This document shows, piece by piece, positions 942 to 15,489 of a stretch of 15,626 nt of DNA (position 1 is its first letter; the number at the start of each line of letters is the position of its first letter). A program made the translations under genes and the position numbers. Source of the stretch: Candidatus Acetothermia bacterium. Its GTDB lineage: Bacteria; Bipolaricaulota; Bipolaricaulia; M55B111. The stretch lies in assembly GCA_046543235.1 (NCBI GenBank), contig JBKGZT010000034.1:1-15626 (forward strand). Direction: 5' to 3'. Below the pieces are notes generated by a model. That model was not told the DNA's origin. It saw only the letters and a program-made list of their open reading frames with translations, and ran no database searches.

Positions 942-3221
942 ATGGACAATCTATTAATCGTCGAATCACCCACGAAAGCCAATACCATAAATAGATACCT
1001 GGGCCCGGAGTTCGAGGTGCTCTCCTCAAAGGGGCACGTCCGGGACCTGCCCGAAAAGGAACTCGGAGTCGAAATCGAAGACGGCTTCCGCCCGACGCTG
1101 GTCGTAAACCAGAAAAAGCTGGTAAATAAGTTAAAGGACGAGGCGAAAGGGAAACAGAACGTCTACCTCGCAACGGACAACGACCGCGAAGGCGAGGCAA
1201 TAGCCTTCGACCTGTACGAGCTCCTCAGCAAAAACGGGAACGGAAGAGAAGATGACGATAAGTTCAAACGCATTATATTCAACGAGATAACCAAGAACAG
1301 TATTAAAAACGCCCTGGAGGAGCCCACCTCTATCGACCTACGGAAGGTCGACGCTCAGCGAGCGAGGCGGATCCTAGACCGGCTCGTCGGTTACCTGATT
1401 AGCCCCCTACTCTCGAAGACCGTATCCGGAAGCCGTTTCGAAGGGCTCAGCGCGGGTCGCGTTCAATCAGTTGCGCTTCGATATATAGTCGAACGGGAAG
1501 AGGAGCGCGAGGAGTTCGACCCGGAGGAGTACTGGAAGGTCGCAGTAGACCTATATAAGGAGTCCAGGGCCGAGGCCTTCCCTCTCCAGCTGAAAAAGGT
1601 CCAGGGTGAAAAACCCGACATCGGCAGCGAGGACGAGGCAAAGGAATTGGAGGAGAAGCTGGAAGAGTCGGAGTTCAGGATTTCAAATCTCAAGGAAAAG
1701 CGGAACGAACGATCCCCTCTGCCACCTTTCATTACTTCTACGATGCAGAGAGCCGCTTCTTCCGTCCTGCACTTCACTCCGAGCAAGACGATGAGCGTTG
1801 CTCAGACCCTCTACGAGGGTGTCGAACTGGACGAAGGGGTCGAGGGTCTCATAACATACATGAGGACGGATTCGACCAGGGTCGCGGAAGAGGCAAACGA
1901 CGCCCTGCGAAAATTCATCAAGGGGGAAATAGGACCCGACTACCTGGCAGAGGATACCAGGTATTTTCGGAAGAAAAGCGGCGCCCAGGACGCACACGAG
2001 GCAATCAGGCCAACCGACGTGAGCCGGAGGCCGGAAGAGATAAAGAGTCACCTTTCCTCCGACCAGTACAAGCTCTACAAGTTGATCTGGGACAGGTTCG
2101 TTGCAACCCAGATGAGTCCGGCAATTTATAAAAGAAGAAAAGTCGACGTCGAGGCAGACGGTCTCGTCTTCAAGACTTCTGGCAGCAAATTAATCTTCGA
2201 CGGCTTCTTGAAGGTATTAAAACTCAAGCCACTAAAGGATCAGGATGTCGACGTCCCCGAGGGTATAGAGGAAGGTGACCGGCTACTGCTGAAGGACGTG
2301 GACTTGAGCCAGCACTTCACCAAGCCTCCCAACCGTTACACGGAAGCCGGTCTGATAAAGAAGCTGGAGAAGCAGGATATAGGCCGGCCAAGCACCTATG
2401 CGAGCATCGTTTCGACGATCCAGAAGAGGGACTACATAATAAAGCGCAATAGCTCTTTTGTTCCCACACTGCTCGGTTTCGTCGTGGTGGAGTTCCTGGA
2501 GGAGTACTTTCCGGAGATCGTGGAGCCGGATCTGACCGCGGAGATGGAAAAGGCCCTGGACGAGATCAAAGACGGGGAAACCAACAAGGAGAAAACCCTT
2601 GCTCGGTTTTACGCTCCGCTGAAGAAAGAGCTGGACAGAGTAGAAAAGTCCCTGGAGGATAAGGATAACGAGTTCCAGATACCCACCGACGTAGACTGTT
2701 CGAGCTGTAACGGCCACATGAATATCAGATACTGGAAGGGCAGTCCTTACCTTTCCTGTTCGTCATGGCCGGAGTGCGAAGAAAAGCGGAGCTTGCCTTC
2801 GGATCTATCCTTCACGTTCAAGGACGGCAGGGTCCTCATCGCGGAGGAACTGGAAAAGCACGAAAAGGAGGAGAAGAAACTGGGAGAAAAGGAGTGTCCG
2901 AAGTGTGGCTCCCCCATGGAAATCAAACACGGGAAATACGGCAGGTTCTACGCCTGTACGAATCCCGATTGCAACGAAACAGCTTCGATCTCCTCCGGAG
3001 TCGAGTGCCCCAAGTGCGGGGACGGGGAACTTCTGGAGCGTTACTCCCGGCGCAACAAGCAAACGTTCTACGGGTGCAGCAACTACCCCGACTGCGAGTA
3101 CACGACGAGTAAAAAGCCAATAAAACAGTGCCCGGACTGTGACATCGGCGTCCTCGTCGAGTCGGACGATAAACTCGTCTGTACCAACAAGAACTGTGAC
3201 CACGAAGAATCCCGAGACTAA
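942..3221 (+). CDS. topA: DNA topoisomerase I (type IA) with four C-terminal zinc ribbons
   Basis: LLIVESPTKA, SKGHVRDL, TOPRIM ATDNDREGEAIA, SAGRVQS, catalytic Tyr in GLITYMRTDS, AQDAHEAIRPT, IGRPSTYA; four CxxC...C..C repeats at the C-terminus. Confidence 0.98.
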   Translation: MDNLLIVESPTKANTINRYLGPEFEVLSSKGHVRDLPEKELGVEIEDGFRPTLVVNQKKLVNKLKDEAKGKQNVYLATDNDREGEAIAFDLYELLSKNGNGREDDDKFKRIIFNEITKNSIKNALEEPTSIDLRKVDAQRARRILDRLVGYLISPLLSKTVSGSRFEGLSAGRVQSVALRYIVEREEEREEFDPEEYWKVAVDLYKESRAEAFPLQLKKVQGEKPDIGSEDEAKELEEKLEESEFRISNLKEKRNERSPLPPFITSTMQRAASSVLHFTPSKTMSVAQTLYEGVELDEGVEGLITYMRTDSTRVAEEANDALRKFIKGEIGPDYLAEDTRYFRKKSGAQDAHEAIRPTDVSRRPEEIKSHLSSDQYKLYKLIWDRFVATQMSPAIYKRRKVDVEADGLVFKTSGSKLIFDGFLKVLKLKPLKDQDVDVPEGIEEGDRLLLKDVDLSQHFTKPPNRYTEAGLIKKLEKQDIGRPSTYASIVSTIQKRDYIIKRNSSFVPTLLGFVVVEFLEEYFPEIVEPDLTAEMEKALDEIKDGETNKEKTLARFYAPLKKELDRVEKSLEDKDNEFQIPTDVDCSSCNGHMNIRYWKGSPYLSCSSWPECEEKRSLPSDLSFTFKDGRVLIAEELEKHEKEEKKLGEKECPKCGSPMEIKHGKYGRFYACTNPDCNETASISSGVECPKCGDGELLERYSRRNKQTFYGCSNYPDCEYTTSKKPIKQCPDCDIGVLVESDDKLVCTNKNCDHEESRD

Positions 3222-3277
3222 AACCGGGGCCTATTCCGGACTTTTCTCCCTCAGCGGCCCTTTGAAGGTTCTTTGAT

Positions 3278-3306
3278 TTGAAAGAAAGGAGTTTTAAGCT
3301 TACCCT
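3278..3306 (+). promoter_or_regulatory. Putative promoter for the tRNA-Ser/SRP RNA transcript
   Basis: TTGAAA (3278-3283), 17 nt, TACCCT (3301-3306), ending 12 nt before the tRNA 5' end. Confidence 0.55.
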
Positions 3307-3318
3307 TTTTAAGCAAAA

Positions 3319-3406
3319 GGAGGGGTGGGCGAGCGGCCAAAACCGCCGGTCTGGAGTACCGGTGAACCGAGAGGTTCCGTGGGTTCAAATCCCACCCCCT
3401 CCGCCA
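3319..3406 (+). tRNA. tRNA-Ser (anticodon GGA), class II, CCA encoded
   Basis: Acceptor GGAGGGG/CCCCTCC, discriminator G plus CCA; anticodon stem CCGGT/ACCGG with loop CT-GGA-GT; long variable arm GAACC-GAGA-GGTTC; T arm GTGGG-TTCAAAT-CCCAC. Confidence 0.96.
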
Positions 3407-3408
3407 AA

Positions 3409-3674
3409 CCCATGCTAGGCGGGAGTTAGCGGTCCCCTTAGTCCCCAATCCGCTACAGGGGAGCCGATATACCTGCCGAGGAGTCGAACACTTGGGTCCG
3501 TACCTGGGTAAGTGGTGTCGACGGTCGAGTCCTCTGCGGCGCAAGCCTACCAACTCCGTCAGGCCCGGAAGGGAGCAGCGGTAAGTAGGCCTCTGTGGGT
3601 GTCAGAGGGTAGCTTGGCTCGAGCTAACTGCCCGGGCAACGCCAGGTGGACGGTTTCGAAGCAGGTTGCATGGG
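3409..3674 (+). ncRNA. ffs: Signal recognition particle RNA, large bacterial type with Alu domain (about 266 nt)
   Basis: Helix 8 CCGTCAGGCCCGGAAGGGAGCAGCGG at 3556-3581; terminal helix CCCATGC (3409-3415)/GCATGGG (3668-3674); 5' segment with TAGCGG...AATCCGCTA resembles the Alu domain of Bacillus scRNA. Confidence 0.93.
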
Positions 3675-3764
3675 ACTAAAGTGTCGAAAAAACGGTCTTG
3701 TAATATATAATTCTCCCACTTCACACCCGACCGTGAAAATTTCCCGACGAAGTCCGGTGATATA

Positions 3765-4328
3765 ATGCGCACCTTCTTTTGCCTCGAACTACCGGAAGAC
3801 GTGAAGGACAAGATAAATGGAATCAGAAAGGACATCAAAGGGCCGGCCTACGTCAAGTGGGTCTCTCAGGAGAATCTCCACATAACGCTGAAGTTCCTTG
3901 GAGAGGTAGAGGAAAATCAGGTTTCGACAATAAAGGAAAGGGCTGAAGGAGCGGCAATCAGGTCTTCCCCTTTCCGGGTGGATCTTGACAGGCTGGGGGG
4001 CTTCCCCCACCTGGGTTTTCCCAAGGTAATCTGGCTCGGTTCTAATTCACCTCCCGACGATATCTATCGCCTACACGAGGACCTGGAAGAGAGCTTGTTT
4101 GGTCTCGGTTTTGAAAAAGAGGACAGGGATTACGTTCCTCACGTAACACTGGGGCGGACCAAAGAGGATGAAGACTCCAGGATAGAACGACTCGGGGAAA
4201 ACCTGAAGGACCACGACTTCGATTCCAGCTGGCGGGTACCGATCGGGAGGCTTACTATGATGAAGAGCGAGCTTAGATCCGACGGGCCGGTCTATACCCC
4301 TCTCTTCAGGGTAGAACTGGGTAATTGA
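3765..4328 (+). CDS. thpR: RNA 2',3'-cyclic phosphodiesterase / 2'-5' RNA ligase (2H family)
   Basis: Two HxT motifs (NLHITLKFLG, YVPHVTLGR), MRTFF N-terminus, KSELRSDGPVY near the C-terminus, 187 aa. Confidence 0.95.
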   Translation: MRTFFCLELPEDVKDKINGIRKDIKGPAYVKWVSQENLHITLKFLGEVEENQVSTIKERAEGAAIRSSPFRVDLDRLGGFPHLGFPKVIWLGSNSPPDDIYRLHEDLEESLFGLGFEKEDRDYVPHVTLGRTKEDEDSRIERLGENLKDHDFDSSWRVPIGRLTMMKSELRSDGPVYTPLFRVELGN

Positions 4329-4329
4329 G

Positions 4330-4755
4330 TTGAGCCATAGCTACCTGGATCACGGCGCTGACATGGGGGTAAGCGCGAGAGCGGGGACGCTGGAAGGTGT
4401 TTTCCAAGAATCGGCAAAAGGATTGTTCAGCCTAATGGCAGATCTCAAGGAGGTCGCTACCGGAACCTCGGTAGAGATAAAAATCCACGGAAGGGATCGA
4501 GAAGACCTCCTCTACGAATGGTTGAGTGAACTCCTCTCCATCAGCAACTTGCGCGGAGAGGTATATTCCGAATTCGCCGATCTGACGATAGAGAAATCCG
4601 ACACCGGATACGATCTTCGAGGAACGGTGAAGGGTGAAAAGTTAGATCCGGGAACTCACGACCTGGGCACGGAAGTCAAGGCGATTACTTACCAGGGCTT
4701 GGATTTATCAAAGGAGAAAAATACCTGGAGGTGCAGGTTCGTCGTGGACGTCTGA
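4330..4755 (+). CDS. Archease (RtcB activating cofactor)
   Basis: YLDHGADMG, LLYEWLSELL, EVKAITY and terminal VVDV motifs; 141 aa; TTG start 1 nt after the thpR stop; directly upstream of rtcB. Confidence 0.95.
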   Translation: MSHSYLDHGADMGVSARAGTLEGVFQESAKGLFSLMADLKEVATGTSVEIKIHGRDREDLLYEWLSELLSISNLRGEVYSEFADLTIEKSDTGYDLRGTVKGEKLDPGTHDLGTEVKAITYQGLDLSKEKNTWRCRFVVDV

Positions 4756-4773: not shown

Positions 4774-6240
4774 ATGGAAGGTAAAGAGAAATACGAGCTG
4801 GAACGGATAGCGGAGTATACATGGGAAGTTCCACGGAGGGGCGACATGAACGTACCCGGCCGCCTCTTTGTCGACGAGGAAACGGCAACGGCCCTTCTCG
4901 AAGAAGCCCGAAGTGGTGCTGAATGGAACGCGCTGGATCAGGTTATTAACGTAGCTTCGCTTCCGGGAATAGCAAAAGCTTCCTTCGGGCTGGCCGACAT
5001 CCATCCCGGTTACGGATTCCCGATCGGCGGTGTCGGTGCCTTCGACGTCGACGAGGGCGTAACTGTCGCCGGCGGGGTCGGCTTCGACATAAACTGCGGC
5101 GTTAGGTTGATGAAGACCCCTCTCTCCACGGTAGAAGTAGAAAATTCGAAGGAAGAGATCGCGGACGCCCTCTTCGAAACCGTACCGGCCGGCCTGGGCT
5201 CCGAGGGTAGGATCGATCTATCCGTGGAGGAAATCAACAGCGTCCTAAGGAAGGGGGCCCGGTTTCCGCTCGAACGGGGATACGGGTTTGAATCCGACCT
5301 CGAGTTCATCGAGGAAAGGGGGACGATCGAAGGCGCAAACCCGGAAAACGTCAGTCGAAGGGCCAAACAGAGACAGTTCAAGCAGATAGGAACTCTCGGT
5401 TCCGGGAACCACTACCTGGAGATCCAGAAAGTAACGGAAATATACGACCGGGAGGCCGCAAGGGTTTACGGGTTAAACGAGGATCAAGCAGTCATTTCCA
5501 TCCACACCGGCTCCAGGGCGCTTGGACACCAGATAGGCCAGGACTACCTGAAAAAGCTGGAGGAAGCGAGCGAAAAATACAGCCTGCCAATTGCGGAAAA
5601 GGAGCTCGTCTCGGCACCTATAGGCAGCCCCGAGGGCAGGAAATACCTCAGCGCCGTACGCTGTGGAATAAATTGCGCCTTCGCTAACCGGCAGGCGATC
5701 TCCGGCCTGATCCGGGAAGCTCTGAGCGAAACCGTCGGGCTCGACCCGGTGGACGTAGAAACGGTCTACGAAGTAGGGCACAACACGGCAAAATTCGAGA
5801 GGCACGTGGTCGACGGCGAAAAAAAAGAGCTCCTGGTTCACAGGAAGGGCTCCACGAGAGCGTTCGGTCCGAATAGAGAGGAACTCCCGGCCAGATATAG
5901 AAACGTAGGCGGCCCCCTGCTCGTCGGTGGAACCATGGGAACTTCGTCCTACGTGCTCCGCGGTTCGAGGAAGGCAATGGAAGAGACATTCGGCAGCGGA
6001 ATTCACGGGGCCGGTAGAGCCATGTCACGAAAGAAAGCCAAGTCCAAATTCTGGGGCGAGGACGTGGAAAAACAACTGAAGGGAAAGGGAGTTACGGTAA
6101 AATCGCACTCCTATCCAGGCCTGGCAGAGGAGGCCCCGGGAGCTTACAAGGACGTCGAAAAGGTAGTCGCCGCCGCCAGCGGTAGCGGCCTGACCCCAAA
6201 AGTAGCAAAGCTGGAACCGCTGATCGTCGTAAAGGGCTGA
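4774..6240 (+). CDS. rtcB: RtcB 3'-phosphate/5'-OH RNA ligase
   Basis: DIHPGYGFPIGGV, GFDINCGVR, GTLGSGNHYLE, HTGSR, GHN, HRKGSTRAF, HGAGR (guanylylated His), EEAPGAYK, C-terminal VVKG; all expected catalytic motifs present. Confidence 0.98.
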   Translation: MEGKEKYELERIAEYTWEVPRRGDMNVPGRLFVDEETATALLEEARSGAEWNALDQVINVASLPGIAKASFGLADIHPGYGFPIGGVGAFDVDEGVTVAGGVGFDINCGVRLMKTPLSTVEVENSKEEIADALFETVPAGLGSEGRIDLSVEEINSVLRKGARFPLERGYGFESDLEFIEERGTIEGANPENVSRRAKQRQFKQIGTLGSGNHYLEIQKVTEIYDREAARVYGLNEDQAVISIHTGSRALGHQIGQDYLKKLEEASEKYSLPIAEKELVSAPIGSPEGRKYLSAVRCGINCAFANRQAISGLIREALSETVGLDPVDVETVYEVGHNTAKFERHVVDGEKKELLVHRKGSTRAFGPNREELPARYRNVGGPLLVGGTMGTSSYVLRGSRKAMEETFGSGIHGAGRAMSRKKAKSKFWGEDVEKQLKGKGVTVKSHSYPGLAEEAPGAYKDVEKVVAAASGSGLTPKVAKLEPLIVVKG

Positions 6241-6246
6241 TAACCT

Positions 6247-8082
6247 TCAACCCTCACTCACGCTGATCTCCGCTCCGCTGTCCCGAGCTGCTTCTATCTT
6301 ATCGGACTGAGGTGAGTTCCGATCCAGCTTAATCCTTCCCTGTTTTGAAACCGCCCCAGTGAAGACCCTTCGGCCCTCGACCCAGATTTCGACTTCCTCA
6401 CCCCTCAACGAAGGATCGAAATTCATTATCAGGTACTCGTCCGTCTTCTTGACGCTGAAACCGCTATCCTTCGTGCTCGACCCCCTTTCCTGAAAGCTCC
6501 TGACGTCGATACTTAATCCCAGCTCTCCTTCAAGGGCGTCGATCTTCTCGCCGCCCCGACCGAGAACCGCCGGCACGTGATTGTCAGCCACGTAAATGGC
6601 GATCCTGTTGTCGGATTTTATTTCCAGGTCGAAATCGAAATTGAACTCTTTACCCAAGTAGTACTCCAATTCCCTCCGGGCCAGGTTCCACATCGGCTTG
6701 GCTTCGTCGCCCTCGACGCTCATCACCACTACCTGTTCCCCGAAGGTATACATCTCGTAGGCGAGCGTACCGCTATCGAAATCCCTGACTTCAATCACCG
6801 GACGGGCGAGGTCACCTTGCTCCATTCCAGAAGGGGTCTTTACGGTGAGCTCGACGTCAAATACTTTCCTTACATCCCCGCCGTCGACGTGGACTACGGT
6901 GTCCACTATCTGAGGGATCATCCCCAGTTCGACCCGACCGATCAATCGCTGGATGGAATCGATCGCCTTGGTTGCGTGAACGACCCCGACCAGTCCGACC
7001 CCGGACATTCTCAGGTCAGCAAAGACCTCGAAGTCGGAGGTCTGGCGCATCTCGTCAAAGATCGTGTAGTCCGGCCTGGTCAACAAAAGTACTTCCGCCG
7101 TATTCGCCATGTCGCCATCCAGATCCCTATACTGGCTGATTTCGGGGGAAACGTCTAGATCCCGGGGTTTTTCCATCGTTTTAACTATCCAGCCGGACTC
7201 CCGAAGGTACTCCGATAGGGCCTGAACCAGCGTCGACTTCCCCATACCCGGAGCTCCGGAAACCACGACGCCGCGATGCGACTCGCTCAACCGCTCCTTC
7301 AGCAGCTCGGAATAGGAATAATCGTCGACCACGGTCTTCGTTACCGGTCTCGTGGCCGTAATCTCCACCGAATCGGAAAACGGGGGCTTCGCAATGGCGA
7401 TCCTGATGTCGCCGAGTTGAACCACCGAGGCTCCTCCCGAATCCATCTCGATGAACCCAGAAGTATGCGTATCAGCTGATTCTACTATTTCCTCGGCGAT
7501 TTCTTCCAATCTTTCGGGGCTTATCTCCTCGGAGCCGATCTGCTGAAGTTCCATCTTTCCCGGCTCTCCCTTCTTGGCCTTAGGGATCGTACCCGCCCGT
7601 AAGTGAACGGACATCGTGTTCTCGTCGAAGAACTCGAGCAGGCCAAGGCCGCTGAAATCCAGTTCTTCGGCCTCCTCCTCGAGCTCGTCCAGTACCACGG
7701 AAATTCCCTTGCTACGCGCCACCGTGGCCTGAATCCGGTCGCTCGTTATAAGAGTCGCGTCCTCCATTTCCGCCAGATCCCTTATCATCGCCTCGATCTC
7801 GCCGGACTCGGCCAGATCCACCTCGTTCTTGCTCGGCCTGTTCCCTTTGAAATCCAGTTCCAGCTGCTTTTCCTCACAGACCTCCCGCAGCCTGGCCAGT
7901 TCGTTCAACCCCTTATAACCCGTCTCCTTTCCTTTTGAAGCCTTAGCTTCCAGTTCCGCCACCACTGCCTCCGGGACGATTATACTTGCCCCTTCAATTC
8001 CCTCTTCTTCCAGCAGGCCAGTCACTCTGCCGTCCACTATTACGCTCGTATCCGGAACGTACTTTTTGCTCTCTCTTTTCAT
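6247..8082 (-). CDS. PIN domain-ATPase-KH protein (archaeal PINA / PINc-VapC family ATPase type)
   Basis: PIN N-terminus (YVPDTSVIVDG, VVAELE, LITSD), TMSVHLR, Walker A GAPGMGKST, KTMEKPRDL, Walker B YTIFDEMR, ADLRMSGVGLVGVVHA, KH GxxG (LGRGG). ATG at 8082 preferred over GTG 8094 because GAGGT lies just upstream. Confidence 0.9.
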   Translation of the reverse strand: MKRESKKYVPDTSVIVDGRVTGLLEEEGIEGASIIVPEAVVAELEAKASKGKETGYKGLNELARLREVCEEKQLELDFKGNRPSKNEVDLAESGEIEAMIRDLAEMEDATLITSDRIQATVARSKGISVVLDELEEEAEELDFSGLGLLEFFDENTMSVHLRAGTIPKAKKGEPGKMELQQIGSEEISPERLEEIAEEIVESADTHTSGFIEMDSGGASVVQLGDIRIAIAKPPFSDSVEITATRPVTKTVVDDYSYSELLKERLSESHRGVVVSGAPGMGKSTLVQALSEYLRESGWIVKTMEKPRDLDVSPEISQYRDLDGDMANTAEVLLLTRPDYTIFDEMRQTSDFEVFADLRMSGVGLVGVVHATKAIDSIQRLIGRVELGMIPQIVDTVVHVDGGDVRKVFDVELTVKTPSGMEQGDLARPVIEVRDFDSGTLAYEMYTFGEQVVVMSVEGDEAKPMWNLARRELEYYLGKEFNFDFDLEIKSDNRIAIYVADNHVPAVLGRGGEKIDALEGELGLSIDVRSFQERGSSTKDSGFSVKKTDEYLIMNFDPSLRGEEVEIWVEGRRVFTGAVSKQGRIKLDRNSPQSDKIEAARDSGAEISVSEG

Positions 8083-8127
8083 ATACGACCTCACGCTTTT
8101 GATCTCTTCCAGGGAAGCCTGAAAGAA

Positions 8128-8157
8128 ATTATAGTAAGTTAGAAGACTTCTTGTTAG
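8128..8157 (-). promoter_or_regulatory. Putative internal promoter for the PIN-ATPase gene
   Basis: Minus strand CTAACA, 18 nt, TATAAT (8128-8133) in an AT-rich gap; palindrome AGAAGACTTCT (8141-8151) in the spacer. Confidence 0.45.
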
Positions 8158-8165
8158 TAGTTCTC

Positions 8166-9434
8166 CTAGTGAAACGAACCGAGAATAAGTTCCGCCAGCC
8201 TCTCGTGATCGTGCTTTATCGTCTTTTTACCCTCCAGCTCGACCTTGCTGACCAGATCGTCCAGAAGGGGTTCAATACCGTATTCATTATCATCGACGAG
8301 ATCCGGTTCCACAAGCTCCGCACCCTCGCTGGTATAACGCTCCAGTATACTATCCTCCGCAGTACCCACGTTTACGACGGCATTATCCAGGTACGCCACG
8401 TTAATATAGTCGCTCAGGACCTCCAGGTGATCCCGGGCAGACATCCCGTCGGTCTCTCCCGGTTCGGTCATTATGTTCGTAACGTAGTACTTTTCCGCGT
8501 CCGCGGACTCCAGAGCCTCGGCAAACCCTTCCACCAGGAGGTTCGGGATCAACGAGGTAAAGAGGCTACCGGGCCCCAGTACGACGATGTCGGCGTTCTT
8601 CGCTTCCTCCAGAGCCGGCGGGTAGGCCGGTGCCTTCTCGGCAAGCTCTACTTTTTCTATTCTACCCGGGTGATTGGACAGGGTACTCTCCCCCTGCAAG
8701 ACTTCGCCGCCTTCAAGCCGGGCAACGAGGTTCGTATTCTTCAACGTCGAGGGGATCACCCTGCCCCGGATGTTCAAGAGCTTACTGGTCTCTTCTATCG
8801 CCAGGTCAAAACCACCCTCGATCCGCTCCAGGCCGGCTATAATCAGGTTGCCGAGCGAATGACCCTCAAGTTCGCCCCCCTGTTCAAACCTGTGCTGAAA
8901 TATCTCGCTCATCCTGGACTCGTCGTCAGCCAGGGCTATAAGACAGTTTCTAATATCGCCGGGAGGAAGCATGTTCATCTCCCGCCTGAGTCTGCCTGAA
9001 CTCCCCCCGTCGTCCATTACGGTCACTATGGCCGTAATGTTAGAGGTGTAGCCCTTTAAACCCCTCAATAGGACGGACAGGCCGGTTCCTCCACCTATGG
9101 CAACCACCTTCGCCCCTTTGGACAGCAGGCGCTTGTCCCAGATGAGTTCGGATGCAGGACGCTCAAGCGGCTCCATCGGTTCCGTCACTGACAGGGCGAG
9201 CCTGTTAAACCCCCAAACTAGCCCTGAAAGACCGGCAACCAACGATACCCCGGCGACCAGATAGTAATAAAGGGGGGTGGAAGACAACCAGTCATAGAGC
9301 AAATCTACCGTAGATCTTCCGACGAGGAGGATCAGGGAAAAACCGACCAGAAGGGCCGAGGCCACTCCGAGAAGGACCCATCTTTTTACCTTCATTCCCG
9401 GATAGAGCCACTTGGAGAGGTTCTTCCAGTCCAT
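8166..9434 (-). CDS. yvcK: YvcK/GlmR (UPF0052, CofD-like) protein with an N-terminal two-helix membrane extension
   Basis: IGGGTGLS, DDGGSSGRLR, PPGDIRNC, GHSLGNL, GPGSLFTSLIPNL, NIMTEPGET; N-terminal WLYPGMKVKRW followed by two hydrophobic stretches. Confidence 0.93.
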   Translation of the reverse strand: MDWKNLSKWLYPGMKVKRWVLLGVASALLVGFSLILLVGRSTVDLLYDWLSSTPLYYYLVAGVSLVAGLSGLVWGFNRLALSVTEPMEPLERPASELIWDKRLLSKGAKVVAIGGGTGLSVLLRGLKGYTSNITAIVTVMDDGGSSGRLRREMNMLPPGDIRNCLIALADDESRMSEIFQHRFEQGGELEGHSLGNLIIAGLERIEGGFDLAIEETSKLLNIRGRVIPSTLKNTNLVARLEGGEVLQGESTLSNHPGRIEKVELAEKAPAYPPALEEAKNADIVVLGPGSLFTSLIPNLLVEGFAEALESADAEKYYVTNIMTEPGETDGMSARDHLEVLSDYINVAYLDNAVVNVGTAEDSILERYTSEGAELVEPDLVDDNEYGIEPLLDDLVSKVELEGKKTIKHDHERLAELILGSFH

Positions 9435-9442
9435 TCTTCTCC

Positions 9443-12400
9443 TTACTCCCTGGGAGTTAACGTCACGTCGTTTATTCCTTCCACTTTTTTTAGTCGTTCC
9501 AGAGTATTCCGATCGACGGAAACCCTGAAGCTCCCTCCTGATTTAACTATCCTGTAGGTACCTCTCTGATCGTCCTTTAGCTTGAAGTATATCGGGGCAT
9601 CCCCCTGCTCAGGGATCTCCTTGATCCTGTCCAGGGTCTCTTCTGTCGTGAGGTTGGCGTTCAACTCTAACTCCACTTCCGTCTCCACCTCGTCCCACGC
9701 CCGCTCTATCGGTACGACCTTCTGAGCAATGAGCTGTCTTTCACCGTCCCTCCGGTCGACTTTCGCCTTCATTAAAAGGATGTTGTCCGGAGCGAGCAGC
9801 GACCCCGACTCCTCAAATACGTTCGGAAAAGCTACCAGCTCCTGTTCCCCGTAACCGTCGGAGATGGTCAGAAAGGCCATCGGATCGCCGTTTCTGGTGT
9901 TTATCTGATTCATCTCGCTTATCCGTCCGGCAACCCAGGTCGAACCGTTCTGACCGATCCCTTCGATGTCGTCCAGTTTACAACAGGAGAAGGAATCTAT
10001 CTCGAACCTGTGTTCTTCCAGGGGATCGCCGGAGATATAGACCCCGAGGAATTCCTTCTCCATCCTGAGCCGCTCCCCTCTCGGGAACCGTTCCATCTCC
10101 TCCCTCGGCGTGTCGTCCTCCTGGAACTCGATCCCCTGATCGAAGAAGGAGCGCTGACCGCTCTTCTGCTGATCCGCTGTTATCCCGCTCACCTCGAGCC
10201 CCTTGTCCATTTGGGATAGCAGGTACTTCCTGGTCCCGAACTCGTCGAATGCCCCAACTCTGATAAGGCTCTCGAGGGATTCCTTGTTGAGGCTACCGCC
10301 CACCCTCTGACAGAACCCGAGAAAGGAGGAATAGCCGTCACCCCTCTTTTCGACTACCGCTCTTGCGGGTTCGCTCCCGACGTACTTTACGGCTTCGAGG
10401 CCGAACCTTATGTCTCCGTCCCCGTTTGGCGCGAACCCGAGGAGGCTCTCGTTGACGGAAGGCGGAAGTACTTCTATACCCATACTCTCGCAGTCCCCGA
10501 TGTACTTTTCTACTTTGTCCTCGTTTCCCCCTACGGAGGTGAGCAGACTCGCCATGTACGAAGCGGGATAGTTCGCCTTCAACCAGGCCGTCCAGTAGGA
10601 AATCATGGCATAAGCCGTGGAATGGGACTTGTTGAAACCGTACCGGGAGAACTTATCTATGTCTGAGAAAAGTTCATCCGCCTGGCTCTCTTCGATTCCG
10701 TTGTCGACACAACCATTGATAAACTTCTCCTTGAGCTGGTTCATCACCTTCTTTTTTTTCTTCCCCATGGCGACGCGCAAAGTATCAGCTTCGGGAAGCG
10801 AGAAACCAGCAAGCTCCTGTGCCATCTGCATGATCTGTTCCTGGTAGATCGGCAAACCATAAGTATCATCGAGCACCCCCTCCAGATCCGGATGGGGATA
10901 GGTTACTTCCTCCCTGCCGTGCTTCCGCTCGATGTAATCCTCGGTCATCCCGCTCTCAAGCGGTCCTGGCCGATAGAGGGCATTCGCAGCAACGATATCC
11001 TCGAACTTCCTCGGCTCGAGTCGCTTCATCAACCCCTGCATTCCCTCGCTTTCCAGCTGAAATACCCCGATCGTCCTGCCATTCCTGAGCAGTTCGAAGG
11101 TGTTCTGATCCCTCTCAGGTATATCCTCGATATCCAAGCTCTTCCCTTCGACCTTTTCTATCAATTCAAAGGTATCCTCGATTATAGTCAGGTTACGCAA
11201 GCCGAGGAAGTCCATCTTCAGGAGACCGATATCCTCGAGGACGTCCATGTCGTACTGGGTAACTACCTCCCCGTCGCTCAACCGCTGGAGCGGGGCGTAC
11301 TCAGTCAGTTCACCCGGCGCTATCACCACGCCGGCAGCGTGCGTGGAGGCATTCCGCATCAACCCTTCAAGCTTCAGCGCGACCTCGAACAACCTACTAT
11401 AAGTCTGGTTCGCCTTCGATTTCTTCTCCAGCTCGGGCACGTTTTCCAGCGCCTCATCCAGCGAGCTTCCCGGGGGGATCGCCTTCGCGATTTCGTCCGC
11501 GTCGTCGTAAGGTATGTCCAGAACCCTGGCGACGTCCCGGATAGCACTACGGGCTGCCATCGTGTCGAACGTCGCGATCTGTGCCACCTGGTCCTCCCCG
11601 TATTTGTCAACGACGTAATCGATGACCTCGTCCCGGCCCTCCATGCAAAAATCTATGTCTATATCGGGCATGCTCACCCTACCGGGGTTGAGGAAACGCT
11701 CAAATAGGAGATCGTGTTCTAGAGGATCGACGTCGGTAATCCCCAGGGTATAAGCAACCACGCTGGAGGCGGCCGACCCGCGCCCCGGACCTACCGGTAT
11801 GTCGTTTTCCTTGGCAAATTCTATGAAGTCCCTGACTATCAGGAAGTAGGTCGGATATCCCATCTCATCTATGATCCCCAGTTCGTGATCTATCCGGTCA
11901 GATATCTCCTCCGTGATCTCGCCCCAGCGCTCCCTCGCACCCTCTTCCACCAGCTTCCGCAGGTAATCGAGCGAAGATTCGTACTCGTCTGGTACTTCAA
12001 ACGGGGGTAGCAGGTAGTCGTCACCGAAGTCCAGGTCCACCTCGCATCGTTCCGCTATTTCCACCGTGTTCTCCAGGGCATCCGGAACGTGGGAAAACCT
12101 CTCCTTCATTTCCTCCGGCGACTTGAGGTAATACTCTTCCCCTTCGTACCTCATCCTGTCCTCGTCGCTGAGTTTCTTGTTGGCCTTGATGTTCAGCAAC
12201 ACTTCGTGAGCGAGGCGATCCTCGGCTTCCAGGTAGTGGACGTCGTTAGTCGCTACTAGCCCGAGATCCATCTCGTGAGCGAGGTCAATGAGCTCCTCGT
12301 TAAGCTCGTCCTGGCCCTCCACCCCCTGATCCTGAAGCTCTATATAGAAATCGTCCTCTCCAAATATCCCGGCATACCTTTCCGCGGCCTCTATGGCCCC

Positions 12401-12862
12401 TTCGCGGTTATCCTGCAGCAGTTTCTTTGGAACTTCACCGCTCTTGCAGGCACTCAAACTTATCAGGTCTTCCGAGTATTCCTCCAGCAGCTCGTAATCC
12501 ACCCGGGGTTTATAATAGAAACCCTCGGTAAAAGCGCGGCTGGTAAGCTTTACGAGGTTCTCATAACCCTGGTTGCTCTTGGCAAGTACCACCAGGTGAT
12601 AGTACTTTTCCTTGCCCTGGTTATGTCCTCTTTTATCATGCCTGCTACCCGGCGCCACGTAGAGTTCACAACCGATAATTGGTTTTACATCAGCCTTCCT
12701 GGCTTCCCGGTAGAACTCGACGGCACCCCTTATGTTACCGTGATCGGTCAGGGCAATCGCCGACATGCCCTTCTCCCTGGTATTTTCTACCAGACCAGCC
12801 AGGGTATTCGTCGAATCCAGCAGGCTGTATTCCGAGTGGTTATGCAGATGAACGAAGTCCAT
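9443..12862 (-). CDS. dnaE: DNA polymerase III alpha subunit
   Basis: FVHLHNHSEYSLLD PHP domain, GPGRGSAASS, FERFLNPGRVSMPDIDIDF, HAAGVV, KMDFLGL, YGFNKSHS, OB fold (GDPMAFLTISD); 1139 aa with no insertion. Confidence 0.98.
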   Translation of the reverse strand: MDFVHLHNHSEYSLLDSTNTLAGLVENTREKGMSAIALTDHGNIRGAVEFYREARKADVKPIIGCELYVAPGSRHDKRGHNQGKEKYYHLVVLAKSNQGYENLVKLTSRAFTEGFYYKPRVDYELLEEYSEDLISLSACKSGEVPKKLLQDNREGAIEAAERYAGIFGEDDFYIELQDQGVEGQDELNEELIDLAHEMDLGLVATNDVHYLEAEDRLAHEVLLNIKANKKLSDEDRMRYEGEEYYLKSPEEMKERFSHVPDALENTVEIAERCEVDLDFGDDYLLPPFEVPDEYESSLDYLRKLVEEGARERWGEITEEISDRIDHELGIIDEMGYPTYFLIVRDFIEFAKENDIPVGPGRGSAASSVVAYTLGITDVDPLEHDLLFERFLNPGRVSMPDIDIDFCMEGRDEVIDYVVDKYGEDQVAQIATFDTMAARSAIRDVARVLDIPYDDADEIAKAIPPGSSLDEALENVPELEKKSKANQTYSRLFEVALKLEGLMRNASTHAAGVVIAPGELTEYAPLQRLSDGEVVTQYDMDVLEDIGLLKMDFLGLRNLTIIEDTFELIEKVEGKSLDIEDIPERDQNTFELLRNGRTIGVFQLESEGMQGLMKRLEPRKFEDIVAANALYRPGPLESGMTEDYIERKHGREEVTYPHPDLEGVLDDTYGLPIYQEQIMQMAQELAGFSLPEADTLRVAMGKKKKKVMNQLKEKFINGCVDNGIEESQADELFSDIDKFSRYGFNKSHSTAYAMISYWTAWLKANYPASYMASLLTSVGGNEDKVEKYIGDCESMGIEVLPPSVNESLLGFAPNGDGDIRFGLEAVKYVGSEPARAVVEKRGDGYSSFLGFCQRVGGSLNKESLESLIRVGAFDEFGTRKYLLSQMDKGLEVSGITADQQKSGQRSFFDQGIEFQEDDTPREEMERFPRGERLRMEKEFLGVYISGDPLEEHRFEIDSFSCCKLDDIEGIGQNGSTWVAGRISEMNQINTRNGDPMAFLTISDGYGEQELVAFPNVFEESGSLLAPDNILLMKAKVDRRDGERQLIAQKVVPIERAWDEVETEVELELNANLTTEETLDRIKEIPEQGDAPIYFKLKDDQRGTYRIVKSGGSFRVSVDRNTLERLKKVEGINDVTLTPRE

Positions 12863-12879: not shown

Positions 12880-13191
12880 TCAGTCACTTCCCCTCTCCTC
12901 ATCCGGCGGATATACGAGCCCCAGTTCTTCTCTGGCAAGTTTTTCGATGTAGCCGGGGTCGTTCCGCCGGGCCACCTCATCCTCAAGCTTCGAGATCTGC
13001 TCTCTCAATTCAGCCCTTTCCTCCTTTAACTCGGAGAGCTCGGCCCGAAGCGTGAATATCCTCTCGAACCTCCTCCAGTAGACCCAGCCGAGAAACCCCG
13101 ACGCAAGGAGGGCAATTACGAGCAAAATGGTCACGGCTCTACCCTGCATGGGGCCAGCTAACCCAGCCTGCTCTTTATCCCCTGTTGCCAT
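12880..13191 (-). CDS. Septum formation initiator (FtsB/DivIC family)
   Basis: ATG at 13191 with SD GGAGGTGA; single TM helix, coiled coil, then DPGYIEKLAREELGLVYP; downstream of eno, a widely seen gene order. Confidence 0.88.
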   Translation of the reverse strand: MATGDKEQAGLAGPMQGRAVTILLVIALLASGFLGWVYWRRFERIFTLRAELSELKEERAELREQISKLEDEVARRNDPGYIEKLAREELGLVYPPDEERGSD

Positions 13192-13259
13192 AGGGTCACC
13201 TCCCCGGTTTCGGAAGACCCTGACCAAACTAGGAACCCATATATTCCCTTAAGGGATTT

Positions 13260-14663
<1,404 letters not shown>

Positions 14664-14982: not shown

Positions 14983-15489
14983 TTACTCGGAGGACCCGTC
15001 TTCGGAAGGAGTTGCGATCTCCAGGATCCGGTACCGTGTCTCCCCTTTCGGGGTCTCTATCTCCACTTCTTCTCCTGCTTCTCTATCGAGCAGACCCTTA
15101 GCCACCGGGGATTTGACGGAGATCTCACCCTCCATCAGCCGGGCCTCGTGCTCACCCACTATCCGATAGGTAAACTCCCTATCCTGATCGAGATCCCTCA
15201 CGGTAACTTCCGTGCCGAAGTCCACCCGGTCGGTCTCGATCTCTTCTTCCGAGATCACCGTCGCTTCGCTCAATACGTCCTGAAGCTTGTTTAAGCTCTT
15301 GCGATGGTTTTGATAGGACTCTTTGGCCGCCATGTATCCGGCGTTTTCCGATAAGTCACCGTTGTCGGCCGTTCGGCTCATGTCTTCTCTGTTTTTTTCA
15401 ATCTTACCCTGGAGCTGTTCCACCTTCTCGGATAAGCGCTCGTAGCCTTCTTCCGTCAGTAAAGTGCTATTCTCGTAATCCCTCTCCAA
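14983..15489 (-). CDS. greA: Transcription elongation factor GreA
   Basis: LLTEEGYERL, GDLSENAGY with acidic D and E retained, VDFGTEVTV, YRIVGEHEA, ISVKSPVAKGLL; TTG start with SD GAGGTGG. Confidence 0.95.
   Translation of the reverse strand: MERDYENSTLLTEEGYERLSEKVEQLQGKIEKNREDMSRTADNGDLSENAGYMAAKESYQNHRKSLNKLQDVLSEATVISEEEIETDRVDFGTEVTVRDLDQDREFTYRIVGEHEARLMEGEISVKSPVAKGLLDREAGEEVEIETPKGETRYRILEIATPSEDGSSE

Follow-up and report, generated by a model that had tools for sequence, protein, structure and literature searches.

We analysed a 15,626-nucleotide stretch of DNA from a hypersaline member of the Bipolaricaulota ('Candidatus Acetothermia bacterium', contig JBKGZT010000034.1; hereafter the window), which carries, between rtcB and yvcK, a gene whose product joins a PIN domain to a PilT-like P-loop ATPase and a KH domain (the PIN-ATPase-KH gene). 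To judge by its sequence, this gene is intact and orthologous to the PIN-domain ATPases of archaea (PRK13764 / COG1855; the MJ1533-type PINA in its long form). The bacterial copies form a single clade, sampled so far only in the class Bipolaricaulia. We infer with high confidence that this clade goes back to a single ancient gene transfer, with a lineage of euryarchaeal type as donor and an ancestor early in the Bipolaricaulia as recipient; in the simplest history, the gene would then have ameliorated fully and been passed on vertically, being lost at least twice. The protein family is known, but a stable, vertically inherited bacterial clade of it is new to the literature as far as we searched.

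The original prediction for this stretch, made from the bare sequence, had described the PIN, PilT-like ATPase and KH architecture as complete, and profile searches bore this out. The product of 611 amino acids (aa) is organized as PIN domain, linker, PilT-like ATPase, KH domain and C-terminal beta-barrel, and it matched NCBIfam NF010335 (PRK13764) over its full length: the score was 776.6 bits (cut-off 340), and residues 8-612 of the protein aligned to positions 2-610 of the 613-position model. The domain profiles likewise exceeded their cut-offs, the KH domain marginally: KH_2 scored 19.6 bits on the whole protein, and when the C-terminal 155 aa were scanned alone KH_1 reached 22.1 bits (cut-off 21.5) and KH_2 22.0 (cut-off 22). 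The PilT model TIGR01420 scored 31.8 bits, under its cut-off of 319.1. Among known structures, those of Sulfolobus islandicus PINA (PDB 5F4H and 5YWW) were matched over residues 28-461 at E ~1e-101 (2e-101 for 5F4H), the PIN domain of MJ1533 (PDB 3I8O) at E 3.2e-32, and PilT structures at about 1e-4 to 1e-5. An AlphaFold model built on a 72-row alignment (mean predicted local distance difference test, pLDDT, 79.4) placed the domains in the expected order.

The motor itself is strictly conserved. Its Walker A motif spans G276-T284 and its Walker B region D338-R346, and residues G276, P278, G279, G281, K282, D338, D343, E344, R346, H369, R379 and R383 were identical in all 82 rows of an alignment of 35 archaeal and 47 bacterial copies. 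G508 and G511 of the KH loop were invariant in the 72-row alignment. Residues 536-611, folded alone, gave a confident small barrel (pLDDT 91.2; five strands, a helix and a strand), past which the protein ends in an acidic tail. A Foldseek comparison of this barrel with the PDB returned a single match at E <= 0.001 (8b0u_C, TM 0.51, root-mean-square deviation 5.8), and in a wide VIA-align search the best match reached Z 5.5, FNR-type barrels coming next at Z 4-5; all of these are too weak for a fold to be named, and none was assigned.

The gene looks selected for and native to its genome. It occupies one open frame, 6247..8094 on the minus strand, which reaches a GTG at 8094, and the ATG at 8082 is supported as its start by a GAGG 6 nucleotides (nt) upstream, by the near invariance of M1 in the 72-row alignment and by a comparison of the yvcK spacer in 11 related loci, where the GAGG and the ATG are the sole conserved elements. 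Relative to its nearest relatives the proportion of nonsynonymous differences (pN) was 0.065 and that of synonymous differences (pS) 0.72, and dN/dS was about 0.03-0.04 (0.038 in the least saturated pair); the gene is under strong purifying selection. It is also compositionally native and ameliorated, with a GC content of 0.553 (0.683 at third codon positions, GC3) like that of its neighbours and a codon-use correlation with them of 0.913 (range 0.72-0.94). Its product was described as similarly acidic to the neighbouring proteins, and is so, with an isoelectric point of 4.56 beside 4.43-5.71 for nine neighbours.

NF010335 exceeded its cut-off in 47 of the 184 genomes of the phylum, spread over 7 of 11 families (numbered f1 to f11): 17/18 genomes of f1, 15/18 of f5, 9/9 of f7, 2/3 of f10 and the single genomes of f2, f3 and f9 (1/1 each). 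The 18th f1 genome holds a gene fragment at a contig end, adjoining rtcB. No genome of f4 (0/74), f6 (0/50), f8 (0/4) or f11 (0/4) carries the gene. The distribution of the gene in bacteria beyond the phylum was gauged from control genomes, from two scans (the best 80 hits in each) and from ESM-Atlas clusters: among 14 controls, all 4 archaea were over the cut-off and none of the 10 bacteria (0/10), and the ten nearest Atlas clusters were 92-100% archaeal. Identity to archaeal members was 42-50%. In a quick tree of the 82 rows, all 47 bacterial copies fell into one clade (SH-aLRT 100), and in a more careful tree of 56 thinned rows the 13 bacterial and 43 archaeal rows were split at 100/100 and in 200/200 bootstrap trees. 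The latter tree further set the bacteria together with three metagenome-assembled genomes (MAGs) labelled 'Methanobacteriota/Halobacteria archaeon' (L054, L129 and L130) against the other archaea (98/95), making these three the nearest sampled relatives of the bacterial clade. A proxy tree built from RecG and RuvB of 21 genomes, covering all 11 families, united the gene-less f4, f6 and f11 in one clade (99/96) and nested the gene-less f8 among gene-bearing families, so that two presence/absence changes suffice. Thus, the ameliorated archaeal transfer that had been proposed holds up in its origin, archaeal on the best reading, and in its native composition; it is neither recent nor private to this genome, being shared by 7 of the 11 families.

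Two observations concern the membership of the clade. The copies at loci L051 (genome G185, 4.4 Mb) and L056 (G184, 4.8 Mb), from MAGs titled 'bacterium UCB3' and 'uncultured Anaerolineales bacterium', are divergent and branch within the Bipolaricaulia clade by a long stem (0.81); they match the model over positions 5-527 alone, in open frames of 692-770 aa, and may represent a different C-terminal module, a second transfer from bacterium to bacterium, or a mislabelled bin. In addition, some MAGs of the clade bear the title 'uncultured Thermotogae bacterium' or 'Candidatus Fraserbacteria' (L011-L013, L016, L018, L019, L021, L024, L031, L033, L044, L046 and L050; L025, L026, L042, L043 and L047), and several of them have proteins identical to those of genomes assigned to the class of the window MAG; we regard these titles as submitter labels, unreliable for taxonomy.

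In published accounts the family has been termed archaea-specific (PMC4858521), entered as 'specific to all Archaea' (Table 2 of PMC1852104) and stated to have a homologue in every sequenced archaeon (PMC6061704). We found no literature report of it in Bipolaricaulota, Acetothermia or any other bacterium; supplementary files, which lay outside the search, may list such cases. The bacterial clade contradicts the archaea-specific label of a family that has counted as one of the few present in every archaeon and absent from bacteria, and it provides a clear example of an old gene transfer between domains. It also bears on a disputed in vivo role and shows that the protein can be of use where its proposed archaeal partners are missing. 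Furthermore, a first isolate of the Bipolaricaulota is on record (bioRxiv 10.1101/2025.11.21.689855), which, if it carries the gene, would offer a simpler genetic background for testing that role.

Having compared the motor and KH motifs, we turn to the PIN active site, where the two domains of life part. The four acidic positions of the PIN tetrad (11, 43, 97 and 115) read D-E-D-D in 35/35 archaeal rows, whereas only 18 of the 47 bacterial rows retain this form. Five bacterial rows, the window copy and the four closest to it, read D-E-E-D (D11, E43, E97 and D115 in the window protein, position 97 being D in all 35 archaeal rows); six read D-E-D-N or D-E-N-D, one reads D-D-E-S, and 16, plus one partial row, read D-L-H-S. 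These last copies, from an f5-type clade of 16 Bipolaricaulia that takes in the f5 genomes G022, G025, G031 and G040 (loci L004, L005, L008, L010, L027, L030-L032, L034, L036-L040, L042 and L047), have three of the four PIN acids replaced and every ATPase motif intact. This pattern, an archaeal tetrad without exception versus a bacterial one kept in a minority beside invariant ATPase motifs, indicates that the constraint on PIN catalysis was relaxed after entry into bacteria and that the motor stayed fixed. Outside archaea, the motifs of the ATPase and the GxxG loop of the KH domain thus stay under constraint and the PIN active site does not, which narrows the hypotheses to be entertained for the archaeal proteins.

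Taken together with the gene content of its hosts, these features make the product most likely a partner-independent hexameric nucleic-acid motor. With moderate confidence, we propose that the protein would form a PilT/FtsK-like hexameric ring driving translocation on, or remodelling of, nucleic acid at the expense of ATP, that the KH domain, through its GxxG loop, and the beta-barrel would recruit a single-stranded or branched substrate, and that the PIN domain would act mainly as a substrate-handling module; the PIN domain of the window protein, given its four acidic sites, may still cut. Searches of 41 related genomes for Hjc (PF01870) and for domain 4 of Hel308/Hjm (PF21280) found neither (0/41 in both cases, with the archaeal controls positive and the window MAG 87% complete). 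Because neither Hjc nor Hel308 was found, while RuvABC and RecG are kept, the motor would work independently of those partners. As for its substrate, we put at about even chances that the protein is an auxiliary, partner-independent remodeller of branched DNA, such as stalled forks, junctions and flaps, since the sole activity shown for any family member, as described in PMC6061704, is Holliday-junction migration and 3'-flap unwinding. This is our best guess; the protein is neither a substitute for RuvAB or RecG nor a component of the RtcB repair operon.

A number of points weigh against this account. The proposed function of the bacterial members is read from homology, and the DNA-junction role of PINA itself is contested: as reported in PMC8775617, a pina deletion strain of S. 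acidocaldarius was viable, was not sensitive to mitomycin C and was only cold-sensitive. A PIN domain combined with a GxxG-type KH domain is, moreover, more typical of RNA enzymes. Among the loci compared, no conserved neighbour was found that would tie the gene to DNA repair; mutL, present in 12 of 31 bacterial loci outside the host family, lies past a convergent gene. As to the origin, the direction of the transfer is drawn from distribution and the donor from adjacency in unrooted trees, in which the archaea are drawn from two scans, with the best 80 hits in each, and include no TACK or Asgard members.

Cold sensitivity is typical of RNA and ribosome-assembly factors. The cold-sensitive, mitomycin-insensitive phenotype of the deletion strain (PMC8775617) would accordingly suit a protein of the same gene and origin that meets an RNA substrate in vivo, namely an ATP-driven RNA remodeller or RNase engaged in rRNA or tRNA maturation or in the quality control of RNA, in which the KH domain would bind single-stranded RNA and the PIN domain would cut RNA. 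We regard this as possible, though less probable than a role on branched DNA. PIN and GxxG-KH are both intact in the window genome, the gene persists in bacteria in which Hjc and Hel308 were not detected, and in the host family an RNA-repair operon adjoins it. However, the published biochemistry, going by PMC6061704, was all performed on DNA, no linkage to an RNA-processing gene is conserved across the locus groups, and the loss of the PIN tetrad in 16 of 47 bacterial copies (D-L-H-S) means that RNA cleavage cannot be the conserved bacterial function. The Bipolaricaulia copies amount to a natural experiment on an archaea-universal protein. On a tentative reading of it, the core function of the family may be a partner-independent ATP motor, quite possibly acting on RNA or ribonucleoprotein, and not Hjc/Hjm-coupled junction processing, with PIN cleavage an archaeal add-on.

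Several described systems can be compared with the gene. The 'PINc/VapC family ATPase' of Euryarchaeota and DPANN (PRK13764 / COG1855 / K06865) has the same domain order and invariant motifs, the barrel included; the gene studied here differs from it in its bacterial host, which concerns distribution and not the protein, in one PIN acid (D to E) and, across the bacterial clade, in the relaxed PIN tetrad. Sulfolobus islandicus PINA (SisPINA) shows homology across PIN, C1, the ATPase and C3 (residues 28-461), and the window protein is presumably a hexameric motor too; yet SisPINA has 505 aa and no barrel, its KH domain lacks the GxxG (PMC6061704), and the lysine-rich Hjm-binding tail belongs to it, in contrast to the acidic tail of the window protein. 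The Sulfolobales-type PINA equivalog model NF053733 gave 411.1 bits, under its cut-off of 800, in a match limited to residues 14-464, and the SisPINA partners Hjc and Hjm are those not found in the 41 related genomes. The secretion and pilus-retraction ATPases PilT, VirB11 and GspE belong to the same P-loop ATPase clade (PF00437), but the PIN-ATPase-KH gene has no secretion or pilus gene context, fuses PIN and KH domains to the ATPase and stays under the TIGR01420 cut-off. With RuvAB and RecG, whose folds are unrelated and which co-exist with it, the possible analogy is ATP-driven remodelling of branched DNA.

Regarding the origin of the clade, vertical descent from the last universal ancestor, with loss in all other bacteria, could replace transfer. 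The trees have no outgroup, a single long branch (0.41) separates bacteria from archaea in them, and some authors count Bipolaricaulota among the deep-branching bacteria (bioRxiv 10.1101/2025.11.21.689855). Such a history is nonetheless very improbable, as it needs loss in essentially all other bacteria, in the face of the ten negative controls and of nearest clusters that are archaeal only, and as the small archaeal group that is allied more closely with the bacteria than with the remaining archaea (98/95) would nest the bacteria within archaeal diversity unless the root falls exactly on the bacterial stem.

The original prediction had offered two functional settings for the gene, the first of them as cleavage or remodelling partner of ThpR, archease and RtcB in an RNA turnover-and-repair system. 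In favour of this stands the convergent rtcB, whose stop codon lies 6 base pairs (bp) from that of the PIN-ATPase-KH gene (6240 / 6247) and which is kept as neighbour in 15 of 16 loci of the host family (the contig of the 16th stops just past the gene), down to 62-67% identity of the PIN-ATPase-KH protein. Distribution tells otherwise: RtcB is present in 41/41 and archease in 39/41 of the related genomes, including families without the PIN-ATPase-KH gene, which itself is over its cut-off in 26/41, and the archease-rtcB pair remains adjacent in genomes where the gene is missing. Neither rtcB, archease nor thpR occurs in the available flanks of the 31 other bacterial loci, and the 35 archaeal loci show no rtcB and one archease, 3.3 kb away. 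The convergent orientation, which the prediction itself had counted as a weakness and which we confirmed, means that the gene and rtcB share no transcript. Thus, a partnership with RtcB is largely refuted and now very unlikely, and the proposed system is left unsupported. Aside from this, archease and rtcB adjoin in families f1, f4 and f6 and lie on different contigs in genomes G022, G031, G037 (C3/C12) and G040 (families f5 and f7). Three RtcB copies (G019:C18:15507-16673, G025:C47:4716-5885 and G028:C7:737-1906), found in open frames of 992-1044 aa, match the RtcB model only from position 46 and may be intein-containing or fused forms.

The second setting was the replication fork, where the gene, co-oriented with dnaE, would take over branch migration from lost RuvAB and RecG. 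It does follow dnaE and yvcK on the same strand, SisPINA does migrate Holliday junctions in vitro (PMC6061704), and RuvA was not found in the window MAG, nor in 6 further host-family genomes that are likewise incomplete. The loss that this idea presupposes did not take place, as RuvB is present in 176 and RecG in 177 of the 184 genomes irrespective of the PIN-ATPase-KH gene, and the window MAG has RuvB, RuvC and RecG. RuvA was found in 34 of the 41 relatives, and its absence from the window MAG is probably an assembly gap, because all relatives with a completeness of 90% or more have it (23/23) and the window MAG is 87% complete. The dnaE-yvcK linkage, in turn, is limited to the host family. 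Replacement of RuvAB and RecG is therefore already refuted and carries only a slight residual probability; an auxiliary role on branched DNA is retained in our preferred explanation.

The surroundings of the gene are bacterial by their profiles. The prediction had named thpR, archease, rtcB, dnaE, an ftsB-type gene and greA, all of which were recognized, and had not mentioned yvcK or eno; topA was recognized as well. The closest public loci come from hypersaline 'Candidatus Bipolaricaulota' MAGs, with 79-90% protein identity. The order eno-ftsB-dnaE-yvcK followed by the PIN-ATPase-KH gene, facing rtcB-archease-thpR-topA convergently, was found in 16 host-family loci from several independent MAG studies, and this synteny is kept down to 62-67% identity of the PIN-ATPase-KH protein; yvcK lies upstream in 16/16 host-family loci and in 0/31 of the other bacterial ones. 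A chimeric contig, against which the prediction had advised a check, is excluded by synteny, because the same gene order recurs in independent loci.

Four DNA runs of one study carry the stretch, and the contig of one, possibly the source run, spans 5600-8648; those listed as carrying 5600-8700 are DNA runs alone, with no RNA run among them. In the Logan contigs of the other three runs the junction of yvcK with the PIN-ATPase-KH gene is bridged and positions 6250-6265 are covered by none of the contigs listed, contigs stopping at 6249 and resuming at 6266; we count this as a hole and not as evidence. These 16 nt fall within the last five codons of the gene and not in the intergenic space, and the break suggests strain variation. 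An archaeal fragment fused to a bacterial contig during assembly or binning, for which the break in these three runs next to the rtcB junction might speak, is already refuted and has a negligible probability, given junctions shared by 15-16 independently assembled loci, the contig that spans 5600-8648 (even if it may be from the source run), native composition and codon use, nearest relatives that are bacterial and not archaeal, and the position of the 16-nt hole inside the gene.

The loci outside the host family have other neighbours. With 10 of the neighbour clusters annotated by Pfam, we found no neighbour family common to the host-family, other Bipolaricaulia and archaeal loci. In the other Bipolaricaulia, a 150-aa GAF-domain gene, which we take to resemble free methionine-R-sulfoxide reductase, lies upstream in 22/31 loci and a GatA-like amidase gene is found in 12/31, and a 174-aa gene without known family is convergent in 16/31, with mutL beyond it in the 12 loci mentioned above. 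Thermococcus loci have ParA/MinD, GPN-loop ATPase, Maf and AsnB genes as neighbours.

The coordinates of the ten genes of the window, obtained from its list of open reading frames (ORFs) and Pfam/NCBIfam profiles, are given together with the elements of the PIN-ATPase-KH gene in Table 1.

Table 1. Genes of the window and elements of the PIN-ATPase-KH gene
Feature	Position	Strand	Evidence and remarks
topA	942-3221	+	TIGR01051, 738 bits
thpR	3765-4328	+	profile match
archease	4330-4755	+	profile match
rtcB	4774-6240	+	PF01139, 509 bits; last gene of the thpR-archease-rtcB operon
PIN-ATPase-KH gene	6247-8082	-	NF010335, 776.6 bits
C-terminal small beta-barrel (predicted)	6250..6462	-	~residues 541-611, ~70 aa
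KH domain	6496..6696	-	~residues 463-529; intact GxxG loop G508-R-G-G511; secondary structure from model
P-loop ATPase core	6940..7308	-	~residues 259-381; T2SSE PF00437, 36.8 bits (cut-off 24.9)
PIN domain	7717..8061	-	~residues 8-122 from ATG 8082; PF01850, 31.2 bits (cut-off 23.6)
Shine-Dalgarno GAGG	8089..8092	-	6 nt before ATG
sigma70-like hexamers CTAACA-18-TATAAT	8128..8157	-	10/12 consensus matches
yvcK/CofD-like	8166-9434	-	TIGR01826, 353 bits; directly upstream of the PIN-ATPase-KH gene, same strand
dnaE	9443-12862	-	NF004226, 1383 bits
DivIC/FtsB-type gene	12880-13227	-	profile match
eno	13260-14657	-	profile match
greA	14983-15489	-	profile match

A sigma70 promoter of its own had also been suggested for the gene. 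The hexamer site exists, but the 2.4-kb region holds 2 such sites compared to 1.1 +/- 0.9 in shuffled sequences, and the hexamers show no conservation across 10 related spacers, leaving the promoter unsupported. No terminator-like site was found between the stop codons of rtcB and the PIN-ATPase-KH gene, the single such site in 6000-8400 lying inside rtcB on the minus strand. The source MAG measures 1.32 Mb, with the window on its contig C26. The gap of ~540 bp between topA and thpR (3222-3764) contains no Pfam-annotated gene; the ORF list gives one 100-aa minus-strand ORF there (3251-3553), and a gap of ~500-630 bp is also present in related loci. Finally, the listed eno ORF begins at a TTG 50 residues ahead of the Enolase_N match, and the true start is probably further downstream.

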